A stretch of 64,000 nt of DNA from Halioglobus sp. (lineage in GTDB: Bacteria; Pseudomonadota; Gammaproteobacteria; Pseudomonadales; Halieaceae). Each line of letters starts with the position of its first letter. Position 1 is the first letter of the stretch. Shown piece by piece: positions 27,641 to 56,546 of the stretch. The DNA is taken from contig JAWKZK010000011.1 of NCBI GenBank assembly GCA_041396005.1, forward strand, positions 67,779 through 131,778, written 5' to 3'. A model generated the notes under the pieces. It searched no databases, was not told where the DNA came from, and was given only the letters and a program-made list of their open reading frames with translations. The translations under genes were made by a program, and so were the position numbers.

Positions 27641-29362
27641 ATGACCCAATCATCGCATTTGAAACGCCGTACCCTGATCAAGGGCATGGCAGCCAGTACC
27701 CTGTTGCCCCTGCTCGGCGCCAATCTCGTGGGCTGTTCAGACGGATCAGACAATCTCGGCAACTCGGTTCTCGCCGATTTTCTGCACGGCGTTGCCTCCG
27801 GTGACCCTCTGACCGACCGGGTGATCCTGTGGACACGCCTGACTCCGCGTGGCGAAGGCCTGGTGCGGGTGGCCTGGGAGGTGAGCACGGACGAGAGCTT
27901 TTCGAATATCGTCGCCAGCGGTAGCGGTACTACCTCGGCGGAGGTGGATTACACGGTAAAGGTAGATGCCGAGGGCCTGCAGCCGGGTTCCCAGTACTAC
28001 TACCGCTTCAGCAGCGACGACACGGTCTCGCCGCTGGGTAGAACCCGAACCCTGCCGGCGGGCAGCGCTGCGGCCGCGAGCTTCGCGGTGGTGTCCTGCA
28101 GCAACTATCCCGCAGGATTCTTCAATGTCTACCGCGAAGTCGCGCAGCAGGAGCTCGACGCGGTGCTGCATCTGGGCGATTACCTCTACGAATATGCCCC
28201 CGGGGGTTACGCCAGCGCCAACGCGGAGGCCTATGGGCGGGTTGTACAACCGCCCAACGAGCTGTTCTCGCTGGCCGACTATCGCACCCGCTATGCGCAG
28301 TACCGCACCGACGAGGACCTGCAGGCGGCCCATGGCCGTCACCCTTTCATCACCGTGTGGGACGATCACGAAATAGCCAACGATGCCTGGCGCGACGGCG
28401 CGGAAAACCACGATCCCGCCACCGAGGGCGATTACGCGGCGCGGAAAATGGCGGCCATCCAGGCCTGGTACGAGTGGCAGCCCGTGCGCCCGCCCACGGA
28501 TGTGAACGAGGTGATCTATCGTCGCTTCCAATACGCCGACCTGCTCGACCTGCTGATGCTCGACACGCGCATCATCGGCCGCGACGAGCAGTTCGTGTAC
28601 CCGGATTTTGTCAGCGGCGGCATGATCGACGTGGCCGCCGCCAGGGCGGCGTTCGGCGACAGCAACCGCAGCCTGCTCGGCGAGGAACAACGGGCCTGGC
28701 TGCGGGAACAACTGGCGGGGAGCGCCGCCCGCTGGCAGGTGCTGGGCCAGCAGGTGCTGGGCGGCCGCTATCACCTGCCCGCGCCGATTCTGGAGGCGCT
28801 GGACCCCGCGCTGTCGGGCGATGATCCGCTCGCTAAGGGCACCGCGGCGGTACTCGCCGCGGTGGCCGCCAAGACCACGCCCGAGGCATCGCGCACGCCC
28901 GAGCAGCAGGCGCTGCTGGATTCAGCGATCCCCTACAACCTGGATGCCTGGGACGGCTACGAGTACGAGCGCGACCAGCTACTTTCCTATGCGATCGATG
29001 TGGGTTCGAAACTCGTGGTGCTGGCGGGCGATACCCACAACGCATGGAGCAGCCAGCTCACCACCCCGGACGGACGCATCGCCGGTGTTGAGTTCGGTTG
29101 CGCCAGTGTAAGTTCGCCGGGTTTTGATTCGGTGCTGGGGCTGGAGGCCTCCGGCCTCTTCACGCCGCTGATCATTACCCTGGTGGACGATCTCAAGCGG
29201 GTAAACCTGGTGGATCGCGGTTACCTGCACCTGCGCTTCACGCCCGATGCCGTGGATGCCAGCCATCGTTTCGTGAGTACCATCGAATCGCGCGAGTACA
29301 CCGTGGATGCGGCGAAAACCATCGCCCAGTCCATCAGCCGCAGCGATATGCTGATGACCTGA
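27641..29362 (+). CDS. phoD: Alkaline phosphatase D family, Tat lipoprotein
   Basis: KRRTLIKG; LVGC followed by SDGSD; HGVASGDP, HLGDYLYE, WDDHEIAND, DAWDGY, GDTHNAW. Confidence 0.95.
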   Translation: MTQSSHLKRRTLIKGMAASTLLPLLGANLVGCSDGSDNLGNSVLADFLHGVASGDPLTDRVILWTRLTPRGEGLVRVAWEVSTDESFSNIVASGSGTTSAEVDYTVKVDAEGLQPGSQYYYRFSSDDTVSPLGRTRTLPAGSAAAASFAVVSCSNYPAGFFNVYREVAQQELDAVLHLGDYLYEYAPGGYASANAEAYGRVVQPPNELFSLADYRTRYAQYRTDEDLQAAHGRHPFITVWDDHEIANDAWRDGAENHDPATEGDYAARKMAAIQAWYEWQPVRPPTDVNEVIYRRFQYADLLDLLMLDTRIIGRDEQFVYPDFVSGGMIDVAAARAAFGDSNRSLLGEEQRAWLREQLAGSAARWQVLGQQVLGGRYHLPAPILEALDPALSGDDPLAKGTAAVLAAVAAKTTPEASRTPEQQALLDSAIPYNLDAWDGYEYERDQLLSYAIDVGSKLVVLAGDTHNAWSSQLTTPDGRIAGVEFGCASVSSPGFDSVLGLEASGLFTPLIITLVDDLKRVNLVDRGYLHLRFTPDAVDASHRFVSTIESREYTVDAAKTIAQSISRSDMLMT

Positions 29363-49355: not shown

Positions 49356-49387
49356 CGCGCCATGCGCCTTACGCGCCATGCGCCTTA
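49356..49387. repeat. Perfect 16-bp tandem duplication upstream of the Coq4-like gene
   Basis: CGCGCCATGCGCCTTA twice. Confidence 0.9.
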
Positions 49388-49486: not shown

Positions 49487-49744
49487 TTAAAAAAAGTACT
49501 TGTAGGCGGCATAAATAGCGGCGACGCCGATGGCGAGTATGACGATACGGCCGATACCCGTTTCGGCGTTGGGCGGCTGCAGCGATGTGATCTCGGGGTG
49601 CGCATTCACATAGTCATCAACCAGGGCTTTGGCACTTTTTAGGTCAATGCCCTTGTGCGCACGAAGCATCTTGATGGCACTGATCTTGCGGCCTGCCTTA
49701 AGCTCAGCCACCACGTCATCCGGCAGATCGATTGGGGTGGTCAT
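49487..49744 (-). CDS. Small protein with a ribosomal L7/L12-C-like domain and a C-terminal TM helix
   Basis: GRKISAIKMLR...DLKSAKALVD motif followed by a hydrophobic tail. Confidence 0.65.
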   Translation of the reverse strand: MTTPIDLPDDVVAELKAGRKISAIKMLRAHKGIDLKSAKALVDDYVNAHPEITSLQPPNAETGIGRIVILAIGVAAIYAAYKYFF

Positions 49745-49863
49745 CGGCAAACCTCGCTGGGCCACGGTGAGGCTACTGTGCCGCCTGCAAAGACTTTGCG
49801 CTGATAGTCTTTATGAACACCAAGGCAGCCATTGTGATCGTCGTCCTGCAACTGGCTCGCTCG

Positions 49864-49958
49864 GGCAACAATGGCGAAGCCATGCCCTGGCAAGTGCGGA
49901 GCGCTGGCCGACCGAGCGAGCTTGCGAGCGACCTGATCGCCTGTGACGCATTATTAGC
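49864..49958 (-). mobile_element. Eroded attC remnant at the distal end of the array
   Basis: Top strand GCTAATAATGCGTCACAGGCG...GCTCGCAAGCTCGC...: an attC-like left arm with AAC changed to AAT, and no matching right arm. Confidence 0.4.
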
Positions 49959-50346
49959 AGCCACATGACACAATCCGGCCTGCTTTGCCCTCCGTACCTT
50001 CGGTGGCATAACCGTCACGCTTCCACCAATCGATGCCACCCATCAGCTCTTTGACCGTAAACCCGAGCCTCGCCAAATTGAGCGCACCCTTCGTCGACGC
50101 GTTGCAACCGATGCCATCGCAGTACGTAACATACATCGCGGATCTGTCGAGGTGCAAGGTGCTTTCCTCGGTCATGACGCGGTGCGGGATATTCAATGCA
50201 TTCGGAATATGCTCGCGTTCGTATGCCTCCGAAGAGCGTGCATCGATAACCTTCACCTTCGCTTTTTCCTGCAAAGTCTCAAACAAATCCGATGAATCAA
50301 TCTCGAATTGGAGCTTGGCTTCATAAAAACTGATTTGATCAACCAT
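49954..50346 (-). CDS. Rhodanese-like domain protein (cassette)
   Basis: VIDARSSEAYEREHIPNA, YCDGIGCNASTKGA, LMGGIDWW. Confidence 0.9.
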   Translation of the reverse strand: MVDQISFYEAKLQFEIDSSDLFETLQEKAKVKVIDARSSEAYEREHIPNALNIPHRVMTEESTLHLDRSAMYVTYCDGIGCNASTKGALNLARLGFTVKELMGGIDWWKRDGYATEGTEGKAGRIVSCGC

Positions 50347-50364
50347 TGGCACGATCCTTTTCAC

Positions 50365-50439
50365 GTATAACGCGTCAATAACCGGCGCAGCGTTGCGGCG
50401 TCCGGCGCCGTAGCCCCAAAGTTCATTGCCATGTTGGCA
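50365..50439 (-). mobile_element. attC site (canonical)
   Basis: TGCCAAC-ATGGC-AATGAACT...GGTTATT-GACGC-GTTATAC; L boxes pair with one extrahelical G. Confidence 0.9.
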
Positions 50440-50458
50440 CTTTGAATCCCAGGCGAAT

Positions 50459-50809
50459 TCATGACCTCAGAATCTTTTCCATAGATCTGCCCTTGGCAAG
50501 CTCATCGATCAGTTTATCGAGGTAGCGAATATTGCGCATGAGTGGGTCTTCGACCTCCTCAACACGAACCCCACATACCACTCCCCTGATGAGGGATGCG
50601 CTGCGATTGATTGCCGGCGCCTCGGCAAAGAATGCGGCCACGTCATTCTCGCTGCCAACCTGCTTTGCCAGGTCGTCAGCGCTGAAAGCTGTGAGCCAAC
50701 AAATAATCTGAACGACCTCCTCTTCTGTTCGTTTCTTCTTCTCGGCTTTCTGGACATAGAGAGAATAGATCTTTGAGAAAGCCATAGAGAAGACTTTGTG
50801 ATCAGACAT
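50459..50809 (-). CDS. DUF2200 family protein (cassette)
   Basis: [51 protein letters not shown]. Confidence 0.9.
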
Positions 50810-50827
50810 TTCTTCGTCTCCCGAGTG

Positions 50828-50853
50828 CGCCAACGCTTCAATCCTTGGCCACG
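50828..50853 (-). mobile_element. attC right half only
   Basis: Top strand CAAGGAT-TGAAGC-GTTGGCG; the left arm is missing. Confidence 0.6.
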
Positions 50854-50893
50854 GAAAAACCTCGAAATGTATTCTCCCGTACCGATCAAGTAA

Positions 50894-51529
50894 CTAGACG
50901 TATTGAACGCGGTTGCGAACTCTTCTCAATCGTGTCTGCAAGAGCAACAGAGCCATAACTAGCAATGCTGCTGTTGGTGGCGTAGAAATTTCATGCAATT
51001 CCGCATCAATACGCAAGGAAATATCGTACCCGGTGCTCGTTCGCCACTCCCAGTTTGACCAGGTTCCTCTCGCTGCGCCATTCTCAAGAGGCTTGGGGGA
51101 GTCCATGGGCATAAACCCCCTGAATGTCTGAAATTCATCGACGCCAAAAACAATCCAGTAGTTGCCAGAAGCAAGATCAAGATCAATATCATAGACCCCA
51201 TTGTAGCCACCTTGAGGGCTCCCAAAACGATAATCCGCTTTTGAGTCGAAATAGACATCCAGGTCATTGGGCTTGTCATCGAGAGAACCGAGAACCATCA
51301 GGTTGAATGTGCCAACAATGACTTCCCCGCTCATCCAGCCTTCAATGCTGTTGAGCGTATACGGCGAATCCAAAGTTATATACCCAGCAAGTTCCTGTAC
51401 GCCGGCTCTCAAGGTTCCACCAGCATTCTTTTGAATTGGCTCGCCGGTATCGATGATTAGAGATGCAAAAGTCCATGGGGCATTTAGCATGAGAATTGCG
51501 AGGGTATAGGCTTTCAATATTGGCGGCAC
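50894..51529 (-). CDS. Exported protein with a PEP-CTERM-like C-terminal sorting tail (inside the cassette array)
   Basis: Signal peptide ending in FA; tail EISTPPTAALLVMALLLLQTRLRRVRNR; GTG start after AAGGA. Confidence 0.7.
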   Translation of the reverse strand: MPPILKAYTLAILMLNAPWTFASLIIDTGEPIQKNAGGTLRAGVQELAGYITLDSPYTLNSIEGWMSGEVIVGTFNLMVLGSLDDKPNDLDVYFDSKADYRFGSPQGGYNGVYDIDLDLASGNYWIVFGVDEFQTFRGFMPMDSPKPLENGAARGTWSNWEWRTSTGYDISLRIDAELHEISTPPTAALLVMALLLLQTRLRRVRNRVQYV

Positions 51530-51569
51530 CTGGGTGTTCCTTATTGCTCTTCCACCTGATTATGTTAGC

Positions 51570-51735
51570 TGAGAACGAAAGCGTTCGCCTGATTAATGTC
51601 CGCTCATCTGGAAGGTGCTTTCGCCAGCGCAATGTTTCGAGACATGAAGTGTGCCCAGTGAAGCTCGCGGCAGCCCGCGCGCTGTAAACGCGTCCGGCTA
51701 GCGAAGGGAGTGCGCTACCCGCACCTGTTGAGGTG
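51570..51735 (-). mobile_element. Degenerate attC-like sequence(s)
   Basis: CCTCAAC left core at 51727-33; GCGTCCGG central motif shared with the 50365 and 53976 sites; right core damaged; possible GTTCTCA core at 51570-76. Confidence 0.45.
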
Positions 51736-51967
51736 CCTCACGGAGCCTACTACGACCAGTGCGCCACAACGCCCATAACGTCGGCCGAACCAGTACTGCA
51801 GCCTCAGGTACAGATACAACTAGTAGACGATCGCTGGGACAGCTCTCGAATAGACACAGAATCCGGGGTGCTGAGCATGCTCCCCAACCAGAGGTTTTCA
51901 GACTGGCTGTACAGGCGAAGACCGCACCCGCCAGGGCGTATGTGTTGTCGAGCCTCCAGTCAGTAGA

Positions 51968-52420
51968 CTAGTAGACTTCGTAGGTAAAAAGATTCCAAAC
52001 GTTGGGAACGGGAACTGCAACGCCGTTTTCTTCGTAGGGTGCATATTCGAACTGGGCTGCGGCCTCCAGAGCAGAATTTGAGAAAACGCCTTCGGGATAT
52101 TCATCGATAATTCGTAGATTTTCCATGTCGCCCGATTCCGTAATATTGTAGACCACCAGCACCCATCCTGTTTTTCTCCGATCTAGTGCTCTAGGCGGGT
52201 AGCCAGGCGCGACTTTTTTGGTGGGAAGGTAGTTTCCGACTGGAAGATCGATACCCCGAGACCTGGCTTCCTTTGCCTGGGCCTGCGACGCACGAAGGTT
52301 TACGGATTGATCGAGGCCATAAGCAGACAGGCCAGGAAGGGGGGTCTTCCTTGTAGCTTCGCCCGTATTGGCGCAGGCCACTAGCGTCGAAACCAGGAGG
52401 ATTATCAATAGTCCATTCAT
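51968..52420 (-). CDS. TonB C-terminal domain lipoprotein (cassette)
   Basis: Lipobox LVAC; PGYPPRAL...GWVLVVYNITESG..N.RII....VFSNSALEAAAQFEYAP. Confidence 0.85.
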   Translation of the reverse strand: MNGLLIILLVSTLVACANTGEATRKTPLPGLSAYGLDQSVNLRASQAQAKEARSRGIDLPVGNYLPTKKVAPGYPPRALDRRKTGWVLVVYNITESGDMENLRIIDEYPEGVFSNSALEAAAQFEYAPYEENGVAVPVPNVWNLFTYEVY

Positions 52421-52456
52421 ATGTTCACTGCTCGGCCGGTTCTGTAACGCTAAGGA

Positions 52457-52504
52457 AGCCAACGCCGGTAAGCTTTTGGTGAGCGATTGACCGTCTGGTT
52501 ATGG
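52457..52504 (-). mobile_element. attC site, shortened
   Basis: CCATAAC core overlapping the upstream stop codon; GTTGGCT core; only 48 bp, with weak L-box pairing. Confidence 0.65.
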
Positions 52505-52813
52505 CTCTCGGGTAATGATCTCATAGACTGCGGATATCCCACCATCCAGAAAGGTGTTCACGATAAAGGGTACGATCGCTCCTATCATCAGCCCCCAGAA
52601 CAACGAGAATACCAACGAGTTTTCCTTTCTCGATTGTGTTGGCCAGATGGACTCCAATTGCAGTGCGACGATGATCATCACGAGTGCTGACAAGCCAACA
52701 AAATAACCAATCACCGGGGATGCCGATGATCCGAGTATAACCAGGACCACAACGATCAACACGCCAAGCAAAGACTTCACTTGTGGCCTTGCAAGACCAT
52801 GGCCTCTAAACAT
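52499..52813 (-). CDS. Small three-TM hypothetical protein (cassette)
   Basis: Hydrophobic ORF; its stop TAA lies in the attC core CCATAAC; the 5' core GTTATGG is complementary. Confidence 0.7.
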   Translation of the reverse strand: MFRGHGLARPQVKSLLGVLIVVVLVILGSSASPVIGYFVGLSALVMIIVALQLESIWPTQSRKENSLVFSLFWGLMIGAIVPFIVNTFLDGGISAVYEIITREP

Positions 52814-52839
52814 ATTTACGTTGACCCTGCGGCAAAGTG

Positions 52840-52894
52840 CCATAACGCCTCAAGAAGAGCGGTTAAACCGCTCCGGTTGAGCGACATGTTAGGC
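52840..52894 (-). mobile_element. attC site
   Basis: GCCTAAC...GAGCGGTTTAACCGCTC hairpin...GTTATGG; 55 bp. Confidence 0.85.
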
Positions 52895-53326
52895 GGCATC
52901 GGGCACCAAACGCTTGGCGTAGAAGATGTTTGAATGCCCTTGTGGATGGTCGGCGACGGTCGCTCGCTTTTCGTAGCCAAGCCGCTTGTAGAACCAGGGT
53001 GCCTGGAAGCTGTGAGACGAGACGAGTACGACCGCGCAACCCTTGCTCCTTGCGTTGTCCTCGGCGCCTTGCAACAGCGCCCTACCAAGTCCTTGCCTTC
53101 GTTGTGCCTCAGCTACCCAGAGATGCGAGATGAAGCAGCAGCCGCCCCAGGTATACCCGGAGATGCCCGCGAGGATGGCGCCCAAGTTGTTTCGCTGGAT
53201 CAGGCTGAACGACTCTCCATCGAAGTACCCCGTCACCTTGGAGTTGAACTCATAGATGCGGTCTGCCAGGAATGCCTCAATCTCCTGGCAGTCGCCAACA
53301 CGAAGTTCGATGGGAGGGTGTTTCAT
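52889..53326 (-). CDS. GNAT family N-acetyltransferase (cassette)
   Basis: LWVAEAQRRQGLGRALL, SSHSFQAPWFYKRLGYE. Confidence 0.92.
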   Translation of the reverse strand: MKHPPIELRVGDCQEIEAFLADRIYEFNSKVTGYFDGESFSLIQRNNLGAILAGISGYTWGGCCFISHLWVAEAQRRQGLGRALLQGAEDNARSKGCAVVLVSSHSFQAPWFYKRLGYEKRATVADHPQGHSNIFYAKRLVPDAA

Positions 53327-53329
53327 GCC

Positions 53330-53383
53330 GCCTAACGCCGCAGGCTGAGGCCGCTGTAAGTCCGTTGCTGCGCCCTGTTAGCT
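53330..53383 (-). mobile_element. attC site
   Basis: AGCTAAC...GTTAGGC; 54 bp; contains the upstream stop codon. Confidence 0.85.
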
Positions 53384-53956
53384 TTCATTTAACAGCACGT
53401 ACTCTCTGATGCCATTTACTAAACTCTGTGGATTTTCTTTGTAGAAGTTGGATGCCCATATCTCAACATTTCTTAAGAAATCAGTAAGATCCTTTTTGGC
53501 AGATAGTATCAAGTCACTTACTTCTGTTTGGCTAAATTCTATACTGATAGCCTTTTCATTGGCAGGCTCATCGCTCCACAATGTAATCTGATCTCCATTA
53601 AATATAAATGTAGGGCTTGGATCGTGCCCCATCCAATTGCTCTTATGCTGAGGCAGGCCTTCAATTACATCTTTCCAATCCTGAAAGTCTGCACAGCAAG
53701 ACGGTTTGATGGACACTCCATTTTTCTCGAATAGCGCACCACCACCAAGCGCTATTTCCTCGCTCAGATAAAGAGCACTAATAAACTCTGAATCTAAAGC
53801 CAATTCATTGAACTCGAGTAAAGACCCTATAAAAACTCCAATCTCATTTTGAGTGGTATTTCCATCTAAGATGATGGTTCCTGTGCGTTTCGGGAATTCC
53901 ACCTTAAATGCGTATTTCTCAACATCGAAATAATAGATATCGAAACATATCTTCAT
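53378..53956 (-). CDS. Hypothetical protein (cassette), AT-rich
   Basis: 192-aa ORF with PSCC..FQDW and WMGHDPSP motifs; bounded by complementary cores GTTAGCT / AGCTAAC. Confidence 0.8.
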   Translation of the reverse strand: MKICFDIYYFDVEKYAFKVEFPKRTGTIILDGNTTQNEIGVFIGSLLEFNELALDSEFISALYLSEEIALGGGALFEKNGVSIKPSCCADFQDWKDVIEGLPQHKSNWMGHDPSPTFIFNGDQITLWSDEPANEKAISIEFSQTEVSDLILSAKKDLTDFLRNVEIWASNFYKENPQSLVNGIREYVLLNES

Positions 53957-53975
53957 TTATTTAACGCTCTAAGGA

Positions 53976-54059
53976 AGCTAACGCCTACCGCTGCGGCGCG
54001 GAAACCGCGCAGCGGTTTTTGCGTCCGGCCCCGCAGGTGCGCACAGCCGGTTGTTATGT
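53976..54059 (-). mobile_element. attC site
   Basis: ACATAAC...GTTAGCT; 84 bp; GC-rich internal stem. Confidence 0.85.
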
Positions 54060-54329
54060 GTGTTTCTTAACCCCGTGATCATAGTCAATCTGCTCCTCAC
54101 TACCTGTAGCAATATAGTCGCTTATTCCTTGGCGCTTGTGCCCTGGCAACGACGGAGGTGGATTTGACATCCAGCCATAGAACACCAAACCGACTAGTGG
54201 GATAAGAAGAACGATACTCCAAAGTGTCTTCGCATATAAAGGTCGATAACTACGCCATAGAAAGAAATATGTGAATAGAACAATCACATAATTCACGGCG
54301 AGAAAAACTATAGCTCCAAGGTTATCCAC
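54054..54329 (-). CDS. Small two-TM protein, PLDc_N-like (cassette)
   Basis: KTLWSIVLLIPLVGLVFY motif; stop codon in the attC core. Confidence 0.7.
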   Translation of the reverse strand: MDNLGAIVFLAVNYVIVLFTYFFLWRSYRPLYAKTLWSIVLLIPLVGLVFYGWMSNPPPSLPGHKRQGISDYIATGSEEQIDYDHGVKKHT

Positions 54330-54335
54330 GATGCC

Positions 54336-54821
54336 TCAGCCCACATAACGCTTCAGGTTGCGGCGGTACGCCGTCCGCAACCCTGACTGGTTATGGTGCA
54401 CATATTGAACCCCACGATGAGCAACCCACACTCCAAGAAGCGTACCAATCACGTAAGGAATGCCAAAACTAAGCAGAGTACCTAGGGCGAGAATGTCGAA
54501 TGAAATGAAAAGGAGCGACGATATGTGGGCATCCGTTGGTATGACCATGACCAGAGCTAGAAATAGGCCAAAGGAATAGAGACTTAAGACGACTACTGCT
54601 AGGCCATAGAGCACTCCTAAAAAATTTAGGAAAAATCCCGAGGCAAAGCGATGAAACATGAACTTGGCTTGCAGGTACCACGCCCATGCGACTGCAAGAA
54701 GAGTTAGAGGGACGCCGTAGAAGGTAAACAAAAATAGTGATTTGATCACAAGGCAAATCGCTGCAGAGCTCAACCCAGCACCTATTGCAGCGACGATAGC
54801 GGCCTCAGTGCGCGGGCTCAA
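54336..54821 (-). CDS. Four-TM hypothetical membrane protein (cassette) that reads through its attC
   Basis: Hydrophobic ORF with a TTG start; the last about 20 codons are encoded by the attC sequence. Confidence 0.7.
   Translation of the reverse strand: MSPRTEAAIVAAIGAGLSSAAICLVIKSLFLFTFYGVPLTLLAVAWAWYLQAKFMFHRFASGFFLNFLGVLYGLAVVVLSLYSFGLFLALVMVIPTDAHISSLLFISFDILALGTLLSFGIPYVIGTLLGVWVAHRGVQYVHHNQSGLRTAYRRNLKRYVG
54343..54396 (-). mobile_element. attC site (canonical)
   Basis: CCATAAC-CAGTC-AGGGTTGC...GCAACCT-GAAGC-GTTATGT; 54 bp. Confidence 0.92.
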
Positions 54822-54827
54822 CGTGCA

Positions 54828-54881
54828 CCATAACGCCAGCGGTTGCGGCTGTAGGTCGTCAGTAACCCGTATTTGTTATGT
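54828..54881 (-). mobile_element. attC site (canonical)
   Basis: ACATAAC-AAATA-CGGGTTAC...GCAACCG-CTGGC-GTTATGG; 54 bp. Confidence 0.9.
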
Positions 54882-54900
54882 TTCTGGGAAGCTGGTAAAG

Positions 54901-54927
54901 TGTGTATATATTTCATATTTATACACA
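54901..54927 (+). promoter_or_regulatory. Palindromic operator of vapBC
   Basis: TGTGTATA-N11-TATACACA, 11 bp upstream of the vapB ATG. Confidence 0.7.
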
Positions 54928-54938
54928 TAGGTAATGTT

Positions 54939-55133
54939 ATGAGAACCAACATTGTCATAGATGATCAATTAATGGCAGATGCTCTAAAGGCTACTGGATT
55001 GAGCACCAAGAAGGAAGCTGTTGAGGAAGGCCTGAGGCTACTTATTCGGAGAAAGAAACAACAGAAAATCCGAAAGCTGCGAGGAAAGCTGAAGTGGGAA
55101 GGTAACCTGGATGAGATGCGAGACGCCTCGTGA
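54939..55133 (+). CDS. vapB: VapB antitoxin (DUF2191 type)
   Basis: MRTNIVIDDQLMADAL...TKKEAVEEGLRLL; GTGA overlap with vapC. Confidence 0.92.
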   Translation: MRTNIVIDDQLMADALKATGLSTKKEAVEEGLRLLIRRKKQQKIRKLRGKLKWEGNLDEMRDAS

Positions 55134-55531
55134 TACTTGTCGATACCAGCGTATGGATCGACTATTTTAATGGTATTGAGAATGCACAAACCCATTCGCT
55201 GGATACCGCCCTAGAAGAAGGCACAGTTGCCATAGGTGATCTAATCTTTCTGGAGGTACTTCAAGGCTTCAAAAACGACAAAGATTTCCGAACAGCAAAG
55301 AGCACACTGAAGACACTGGATATATATGAATTACTGGGCAAAAAAATGGCCTTAAAGAGTGCCGAATATTATCGCACACTGCGAAAAAAGGGAATCACGA
55401 TACGAAAAACGAACGATGTGATAATCGCTACTTTTTGCATTGAGAATAGAATCCCTCTTCTTTTTAGTGATAGAGATTTTTTTCCATTCGTCGATCATCT
55501 GAAACTACGCGCCGTAGTCGAGGAAACATAA
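55130..55531 (+). CDS. vapC: VapC PIN-domain toxin
   Basis: ILVDTSVWIDYF, LEVLQG, TNDVIIA, LLFSDRDF. Confidence 0.95.
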   Translation: MILVDTSVWIDYFNGIENAQTHSLDTALEEGTVAIGDLIFLEVLQGFKNDKDFRTAKSTLKTLDIYELLGKKMALKSAEYYRTLRKKGITIRKTNDVIIATFCIENRIPLLFSDRDFFPFVDHLKLRAVVEET

Positions 55532-55585
55532 CGCTTCAAGCACCGGCGGTGAAAAATGGAGCCGGCTGAGCTACTCTTGACTGTG
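55526..55585 (-). mobile_element. Array-proximal attC (right half intact, left half degenerate)
   Basis: Top strand CGGTGCT-TGAAGC-GTTATGT; same TGAAGC spacer as the 50828 and 54343 sites. Confidence 0.65.
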
Positions 55586-55604
55586 TTTAAAAGGGGATCT
55601 TGCC

Positions 55605-56546
55605 ATGCGAATGAGCCTGCGCAGTCCAGGCTTGCTGCTTTCCCTGTTTGCGGTCTGCGCGCTGGTCATGCCGGTTCAGGCACAGTGTCAGGGCGGCAGC
55701 TTTGAAGTACATGCTGTGCACATTTCGCCGGCTGTCGTCATTGAGGAGCAGCCCGTCACGGTGACGGTAACGGGCTTCAACCTGCTGGCGGGCGGTTTTG
55801 AGCCATACCAGGGCAGCCTGCTGATCGCCGATCCGGCGCTGTACGACGTGGCGGTGGAAGGCGCCCGAGTGACACTCACTTATCAGGAGCCGATCTGGGA
55901 TCTGTGTATAGATCCCACACCGCCCTTGGGCGCCAATTACCCGCAGCGGCGGCAGTTTCAGCTGCCGGGCCTGGCGGAGGGAGATTACCTGCTGGTAGTG
56001 GACTACGGCATCGCGCGCAACTGCGGTGGCACCGTTTCTCAGAGCGTCGAGCGGAAGTTGAGGGTTTACCGGGAGGAGCCCGCGCAGCGGCTTTTCAATC
56101 ATGAAACCCCCGAGCAGGGTCAAACGGTGAGCGGTGTGGGTCTCATTCGCGGCTGGGTGTGCTACAACGATGATTGGCGGGCGGGTGGCACGGCGCCAGT
56201 GGTGAGCAGCCTCGGCTACCGAGTGGATAACGGGCCGGTAAAGGCTCTGGCCGCCGGCACCAGCCGAACAGATACTGCGTCAGTGTGCGGCGAGTACAAC
56301 ACAGCCACGGGCTACGGCGCGGTGGTGTACTGGGGCAGTTTCGGTGTGGGCGAGCACGAGTTCACGCTGCTGGTGGACGGCGAGCCGGTGGAAACCACGG
56401 TGTTCAACGTGGTCGCGCCGCCGGAGGGTTTTCTGAAGGGTGTGCAGGCTGGCGCCACGGTGGCCGATTTTCCCGTCCCCGGGCGCAGCGTGCGCGTGGA
56501 GTGGTCCGAGGCGGACCAGAACTTTGTGATTACCGAATTTAATTAA
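55605..56546 (+). CDS. Exported hypothetical protein
   Basis: Signal peptide; C-terminal domain ETP..G.TVSGVGLIRGWVC...GTSRTDTASVCG...EWSEADQNFVI; not an integrase. Confidence 0.75.
   Translation: MRMSLRSPGLLLSLFAVCALVMPVQAQCQGGSFEVHAVHISPAVVIEEQPVTVTVTGFNLLAGGFEPYQGSLLIADPALYDVAVEGARVTLTYQEPIWDLCIDPTPPLGANYPQRRQFQLPGLAEGDYLLVVDYGIARNCGGTVSQSVERKLRVYREEPAQRLFNHETPEQGQTVSGVGLIRGWVCYNDDWRAGGTAPVVSSLGYRVDNGPVKALAAGTSRTDTASVCGEYNTATGYGAVVYWGSFGVGEHEFTLLVDGEPVETTVFNVVAPPEGFLKGVQAGATVADFPVPGRSVRVEWSEADQNFVITEFN

Follow-up and report, generated by a model that had tools for sequence, protein, structure and literature searches.

An integrase-less integron cassette array in a Halioglobus genome and an attI-like remnant at the same locus in its closest relative

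A minus-strand integron cassette array without an integrase of its own was found in Halioglobus sp., in a 64,000-nucleotide stretch (the window) that corresponds to positions 67779-131778 of contig C11 (JAWKZK010000011.1) of assembly GCA_041396005.1, a 4.05-Mb draft genome in 28 contigs (G000 in our genome set). The array spans window positions 49863-55591, with the minus strand of the window as its top strand, and holds about ten promoterless one-gene cassettes. It belongs to an already known kind, the attC clusters that have no integron-integrase (CALINs), a class that here rests on models built from Halioglobus arrays. We consider it very probable that a complete chromosomal integron once occupied this locus and that its integrase gene, intI, was lost, together with the attI site in this genome. 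The points that reach beyond the routine are only the attI remnant kept at the same locus by the closest relative and, possibly, a mosaic intI at the dnaE2 locus.

The attC sites were scored with covariance models built solely from attC sites of integrase-linked arrays, with no window sequence inside them. Model R1 was derived from six sites (M1-M6) of the genome's main array on contig C10, and model R2 from 31 sites of intI-linked arrays in seven Halioglobus genomes; the consensus structure was set by hand, since a MAFFT alignment of the main-array sites yielded nothing useful with RNAalifold. In the training set of 31 sites, covariation extends to all five pairs of the 5-bp L-box stem, with 91% of cells paired versus 28-41% when the partner is slid. 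The six top R1 matches in the window were S4, S3, S2, S6, S1 and S5 (sites are numbered from the proximal end), all on the minus strand and at the coordinates found by eye. R1 also detected dense arrays adjoining intI in further Halioglobus genomes. With a cut-off of E < 0.05 for the whole window, R2 returned seven sites, from 60.1 down to 18.4 bits (E 1.7e-13 to 0.022), again all on the minus strand and spaced 0.4-2.5 kb apart, which is the clustering expected of a CALIN (two or more attC sites, neighbours less than 4 kb apart). Next in the R2 ranking came one unrelated match, followed by two eroded sites, one with 13.5 bits at 51656-51734 and one with 10.8 bits at 52442-52504. The orientation of the array is clear because on the plus strand these sites reach only 6-7 bits, versus 20-60 bits on the minus strand. 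The first-pass annotation, made from the sequence by eye, had counted about 11 attC or attC-like sites and had proposed a covariance model as the test. The independent models do score the sites, and the count holds, with seven sites found by R2, two sub-threshold at fitting positions, one (S11) recognized by homology and one (S9) by eye.

On the minus strand, the junctions take the form xxxTAAC ... GGCGTTRRRY. The R'' (..AAC) and R' (GTT..) boxes pair at 4/4 TAAC/GTTA positions in S2-S7 and at 3/4 in S1 and S10. At least five of the attC types in the array (S3, S4, S8b, S10 and, for S1, its R' half) turn up again in arrays of the genus, many of them adjoining intI (BLAST, 47 genomes). Less specific searches added little: with a genome this rich in GC, simply looking for AAC...GTT hairpins lacked specificity both within the window and genome-wide, model matches at C17:96772 and at window position 28745 look like chance in GC-rich DNA, and an Rfam scan gave chance-level matches only, with no attC-type family.

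When an integron integrase inserts a cassette, the crossover between G and TT makes the 5' core of the cassette the complement of its own R''. In six consecutive cassettes (S1 to S7), the 5' core 7-mer is the exact complement of R'' in the cassette's own attC, 7/7 in each case (GTTATGT/ACATAAC twice, GTTATGG/CCATAAC twice, GTTAGCT/AGCTAAC and GTTAGGC/GCCTAAC); the pattern had been noticed on first inspection and was borne out by script. Within a single site, R'' and R' match at 3-6 of 7 positions, and when the observed cores were permuted, the pattern appeared in one of 180 distinct orderings. The complementarity probably arose because the cassettes were inserted one by one by an integron integrase. 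It is hardly credible that these sites represent intergenic palindromes of a generic kind (REP-like elements or terminators) or that the array is an assembly chimera. The weak predicted folding of S1, S2, S5 and S7 (DNA minimum free energy, MFE, -4 to -10) and the draft state of the 28-contig genome would fit such an origin, but independent models and homology link the sites to arrays that have an integrase, the own-core rule is obeyed six times over, and an independent assembly of the closest relative, G018, repeats the architecture of the locus.

The state of preservation differs from site to site, all of which lie on the minus strand. The proximal site, S1 (55526-55591; R'' TTTAAAC, R' GTTATGT), scores 21.0 bits with R2 (E 0.0045) and has 9/9 modelled pairs with two 1-nt insertions in the R'' arm, its L stem fitting after a 1-nt shift. 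S2 (54828-54881, 54 nt, 26.8 bits) and S3 (54343-54396, 54 nt, 37.1 bits, E 2.3e-7, DNA MFE -17.4) belong to one sequence family according to nhmmer. S3 is the best preserved and the only one with all nine modelled pairs and no indel; it is fully canonical, with 5/5 L-stem pairs and the extra base at the ninth position after AAC, and its type is also found in arrays of G053, G014 and others. S4 (53976-54059, 84 nt, 60.1 bits, E 1.7e-13) lacks the 3-nt R''-L'' spacer. It matches main-array site M2 (nhmmer E 8.4e-10) and represents a type common genus-wide, with dozens of copies at 75-99% identity in arrays adjoining intI. S5 (53330-53383, 54 nt) and S6 (52840-52894, 55 nt) score 19.8 bits each; S6 folds into a good hairpin (MFE -12.3) of atypical arm geometry. 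Two L-box pairs are mismatched in each of S2, S5 and S6, leaving 3/5 L-stem pairs.

Towards the distal end, S7 (52442-52504, 10.8 bits) is an eroded short site with two consecutive R'-like boxes, GTTGGCT and GTTACAG, whose R'' (CCATAAC) still complements the 5' core of its own cassette at 7/7 positions. In S8b (51656-51734, 13.5 bits), R'' is kept and R' is mutated, and window positions 51650-51729 match attC copies in arrays of G059, G003, G056 and others. S9 (50828-50920; TCGCAAC ... GAAGCGTTGGCG) is a candidate degenerate site, recognized by eye only and unscored by R2, that overlaps the 3' end of a 211-aa open reading frame (ORF). S10 (50365-50439, 75 nt, 18.4 bits, E 0.022) has one mismatch in each box, and its type is also present in intI-linked arrays of G047 and G018. 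At the distal end of the array, S11 (49863-49959) is, by homology to full copies, a truncated copy of an attC type of about 135 nt. Its R'' is degenerate (AAC to AAT, with an insertion), and alignment with the full copies on contigs C16 and C6 shows that the 3' third, including R', is absent.

Two observations on individual sites stand apart from the scoring. Copies of the S4-type attC in another species (G001:C25:4041-4113 and further G001 contigs) share 88-99% identity, which indicates either strong conservation or recent interspecies cassette exchange. The cassettes after S4 and S7 (53940-53982 and 52442-52470) both start with GTTRGCTTCCTTAG(A)GCGTTA, a second R'-like box about 15 nt past the first, which may be what is left of an attC cut in half or of a very small cassette without an ORF.

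Most sites between 52840 and 54881 had been described as unusually short and intact. The length of 54-55 nt was upheld for S2, S3, S5 and S6 but not for S4, with its 84 nt, while intactness was upheld for S3 only, given the L-box mismatches of S2, S5 and S6 and the missing spacer of S4. The classical length range of attC sites is 57-141 bp. Short sites are not peculiar to this array, as 55-57-nt sites are also found in integrase-linked Halioglobus arrays. A proposed gradient of decay along the array is only partly sustained: the order of the sites from the proximal end correlates with the R2 score (Spearman rho -0.84, p 0.0014), but the correlation is confounded by attC type, includes two sites at the floor value and is non-monotonic, with its maximum at the fourth site.

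No integron-integrase match (TIGR02249 profile, whole genome) was obtained on contig C11, and tblastn of IntI revealed no IntI-like remnant in the window (best E only 0.5). Neither intI nor attI, the adjoining pair that would make the array a complete integron, is in the window, in line with the earlier description of the array as integrase-less. The search of the genome for intI, which had been suggested as a check, located the single integron integrase of the genome elsewhere, as an intact gene at C9:196743-197681 (TIGR02249 430 bits, cut-off 265); sub-cut-off matches on C22 and C15 are Xer-like. The C9 gene lies 555 bp from its contig end, and the array of this integron continues at the start of C10, where its six mapped attC sites, M1-M6, are homologous to those of the window array. 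This intI adjoins dnaE2, an error-prone polymerase gene, with a small DUF2283-like ORF between them (region L006 6764-11760). The same intI-dnaE2 neighbourhood is found in several Halioglobus genomes (also L029-L034), and the dnaE2-adjacent position is the conserved chromosomal site of the integron of the genus. Altogether, 24 of 41 Halioglobus genomes carry an intI above the cut-off.

A second integrase-less array of low GC content is present at C16:13300-17100 (L048 4300-8100) and ends at an IS21 element (istA/istB). It has minus-strand R2 attC matches of 33.4, 21.7, 20.9 and 16.2 bits, and its cassettes include genes for a cold-shock protein, a GFA-like protein, a GNAT protein, a plus-strand toxin-antitoxin-like pair, a HigA-like antitoxin and a 229-aa product with a PEP-CTERM-like tail. 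At C6:1498-1635, 1.5 kb from the contig start and in low-GC DNA, lies a full-length, long S11-type attC of weak score; this region may be another part of the main array. No further attC sites are present at the ends of contigs C1, C4, C17 and C9.

Evidence on the origin of the array comes from the same locus in relatives. In G018, the closest relative, genes with 94% and 76% amino acid identity to the two flanking genes lie 4.5 kb apart in an independent assembly, and between them is an array in the same orientation as that of the window. The array predates the species split because G018 has it between the same flanks and in the same orientation. Between the G018 flanks are a single strong attC (45.6 bits) and four cassette-like ORFs, none of which has a homologue anywhere in the source genome, and in a third relative (L036) the flanks are present and the array is absent. 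The cassettes are therefore not syntenic in relatives, and vertical inheritance of the genes, which had been named as an outcome that would count against a cassette array, was not observed.

The G018 locus (C3; L025 7700-7890) further contains about 181 nt collinear with the intI-attI region of the source genome's C9 integron. This attI-like stretch ends at the crossover CTG|TTAT and matches the attI core at 27/31 positions, with equal spacing between the two matching segments in both genomes; against the whole source genome, its BLAST E value is 1.7e-5. Its local alignment score is 54, versus 18.7 +/- 2.3 for shuffles, and the attI-proximal regions at seven further intI loci in the genus, both of those in G018 among them, score 16-26, which is noise level. 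There is no intI at the G018 locus; an exported-protein gene, in equal orientation, stands at the place expected for it, and what was once an intI promoter region may now lie upstream of this gene. Because G018 keeps an attI-like region there without intI, the nucleotide evidence is that the locus once carried an integron head. The first-pass annotation had placed the missing intI and attI above 55.6 kb, and the placement proved sound: the minus strand is the top strand of the array, and the G018 remnant is at exactly that end.

It is very unlikely that an integrase acting in trans built the array at a secondary genomic site (attG, 5'-GWT-3') and that no integron ever occupied the locus. Insertion by IntI outside att sites is experimentally established and has been put forward as a source of small CALINs (bioRxiv 10.1101/2022.09.11.507474); an intact IntI is encoded in the genome, and relatives differ in what lies between the flanking genes. 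That route, however, predicts a hybrid proximal junction and a complete distal attC, and what is observed is a whole S1 at the proximal end and an S11 without R' at the distal end. The roughly 180 nt of attI region at the same locus in G018 also speak against it, and a ten-cassette array is large for such a process.

Similarly, it is unlikely that a recent rearrangement cut the distal part of the main dnaE2-linked integron off its intI and moved it here. Rearrangement is listed among the sources of CALINs (Cury 2016, PMC4889954), the window array and the main array have attC types in common, and the C16 array shows an integrase-less array ending at an IS21. Set against this are the G018 array between the same flanks, in the same orientation, and the lack of an insertion sequence (IS) at either end of the array within the window.

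Some observations weigh against our favoured explanation, that of a complete integron at this locus that lost its head. The window's own proximal end scores at noise level against the attI region, and the window holds no trace of attI or intI, so the case for intI having been lost here depends on synteny with a single relative. In most sites the L box is mismatched or there are indels, which makes their recombination competence uncertain. Moreover, no cassette is duplicated between the window array and the main array, and hence there is no sign of recent exchange.

We nevertheless propose the following course of events for the loss of an integron head. Cassettes would have been inserted singly by the integron integrase into a complete chromosomal integron at the locus, from which intI was later deleted. 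In the source genome, attI and any more proximal cassettes would also have been deleted, up to the R'' end of S1, and at the distal end the last attC, S11, would have been truncated. The present array may be a passive store whose attC sites drift, since nothing at the locus would select for recombination. By analogy with array-stabilizing toxin-antitoxin cassettes (Sci Adv 2024, PMC13108822), an inverted vapBC cassette next to S1 probably penalizes loss of the proximal part. Through attC x attC recombination, the integrase encoded on C9 could release the better-preserved cassettes (S1-S6) and place them again at its own attI. Judged from sequence, mobilization in trans, as suggested at the outset, is plausible in view of the intact intI in the genome and the attC types common to the two arrays. 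The order of the deletions, the stabilizing role of vapBC and present-day mobilization are what we infer from these data.

The history of the dnaE2-linked integron may be intertwined with that of the array's locus. In G018, the dnaE2-linked intI (C21; L067 4650-5497) is a pseudogene that has lost about 200 nt internally. Compared with the intI of the source genome (L006 10600-11650), its 3' end is 88% identical and its 5' two-thirds 70.6%, and the two attI regions are unrelated. A mosaic of this kind suggests that integron platforms have recombined. A tentative extension of this idea is that the array is the relic of a second chromosomal integron that lost its head step by step (intI in G018, intI and attI here) and whose attI lineage now heads the dnaE2 integron, the platforms having been swapped by gene conversion or recombination; we regard it as possible but doubtful. 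A simple inversion between two intI genes was rejected as the source of the mosaic, since it would break the left-flank synteny that is observed.

By definition, a CALIN comprises two or more attC sites that follow one another at distances below 4 kb, with no integron integrase nearby (Cury 2016, IntegronFinder, PMC4889954). In the same survey, about half of CALINs were on replicons encoding IntI, 95% had no intI pseudogene nearby, 83% contained fewer than 6 attC sites, and just 6.6% exceeded 10 (PMC4889954). The window array resembles these elements in its roughly 11 attC sites with no intI within 4 or 10 kb, its cassettes unrelated to resistance genes, the complete integron elsewhere in the genome and the absence of an intI pseudogene near the array. 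Unlike most CALINs, it is large, and its sister species preserves an attI region, which is direct evidence for an origin by loss of intI. As in the sedentary integrons of Gammaproteobacteria (the Vibrio superintegron, Xanthomonas, Shewanella), the attC sites are typical of the genus, the cassettes are mostly of unknown function, one of them is an inverted toxin-antitoxin cassette, and the intI of the genus is at a conserved site (dnaE2). Unlike those chromosomal integrons, the window array lacks its own intI, attI and Pc promoter, and its attC sites show partial erosion.

CALINs are common and their origin is debated, with loss of intI, rearrangement and secondary-site insertion as the candidates. 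Two species that share a locus, one of them keeping attI without intI, offer a clean case of integrase loss followed by slow erosion of attC sites. The data also reveal, in a marine genus of the Halieaceae, a genus-wide chromosomal integron linked to dnaE2 with attC families of its own, including very short ones of 54-57 nt; we found no paper describing integrons in Halioglobus. The integron mechanism as already understood is unchanged by these results.

The array stands out from its surroundings in composition. Between 49.8 and 55.6 kb, GC content drops from 0.60-0.70 to 0.41-0.58, and GC at third codon positions (GC3) is 0.39-0.72 in the cassettes versus 0.75-0.83 in the flanking genes. Ten short minus-strand ORFs accompany one plus-strand pair, the vapB-vapC toxin-antitoxin cassette (54940-55531), which is inverted relative to every other cassette. 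VapB (54940-55133) matches the profile PF09957 (VapB_antitoxin, E 1e-16) and VapC (55130-55531) the PIN-domain profile PF01850 (E 3.7e-11), and vapB overlaps the gene of the PIN-domain toxin by 4 nt, the organization of type II VapBC systems. Similar cassettes in other Halioglobus genomes share 65-79% nucleotide identity over all matches and 72-79% for the three best, and the copy in G003 sits between attC matches. In its orientation, opposite to that of the other cassettes, and in its flanking attC sites, the pair is like the array-stabilizing toxin-antitoxin cassettes of the Sci Adv 2024 report cited above; unlike them, its stabilizing effect would be an inferred one here, and a simple consensus-based scan of 54300-55700 found neither promoter nor terminator.

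From the proximal end, the minus-strand cassettes encode a hydrophobic 161-aa product without a family match (54336-54821), a membrane-like 91-aa product (54054-54329) and a 192-aa product of unassigned function (53378-53956), for which an exact-protein look-up returned no second record and whose GC content, 0.39, is the minimum of the array. The next encodes a GNAT acetyltransferase (52889-53326; PF00583, E 3.5e-12), with its start codon a few nt past the 5' core and its stop codon within R'' of S6. Then follow a membrane-like 114-aa product (52499-52843) and a protein with a TonB C-terminal domain (51968-52462; PF03544, E 7.8e-12). A non-coding zone with halved or eroded sites, S8b among them (51530-51967), separates these from a hydrophobic 211-aa product with a basic C-terminal tail and no family match (50894-51529), a DUF2200 protein (50459-50833; PF09966, E 6e-48; G007 homologue at 85% nucleotide identity) and a rhodanese (49954-50364; PF00581, E 4.3e-16).

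To the right of the array, a plus-strand gene of native GC content for a 313-aa exported protein (55605-56546) occupies the expected position of intI, with its ATG only 14 nt from the R'' end of S1. In window positions 55585-55607, its ribosome-binding site (AAGGGG) abuts R'' of S1. Because of this, its promoter must sit in cassette DNA (S1 or the 3' end of vapC), or else the gene must be transcribed by same-strand read-through from vapBC.

To the left, a small minus-strand ORF (49487-49765) encodes a ribosomal L7/L12 C-terminal-like domain followed by a C-terminal transmembrane helix. Its GC3 is intermediate (0.67), and it shares 57% amino acid identity with its G018 counterpart, versus 94% for the neighbouring flank gene; it may be an old, domesticated distal cassette. 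As a distal cassette shared by the two species it was set aside, the attC-like match downstream of it in G018 being weak (15.8 bits) and unconvincing by eye. Further out, the spacer between this ORF and a Coq4-like gene contains a perfect 16-nt tandem duplication at 49356-49387 (two copies of CGCGCCATGCGCCTTA).

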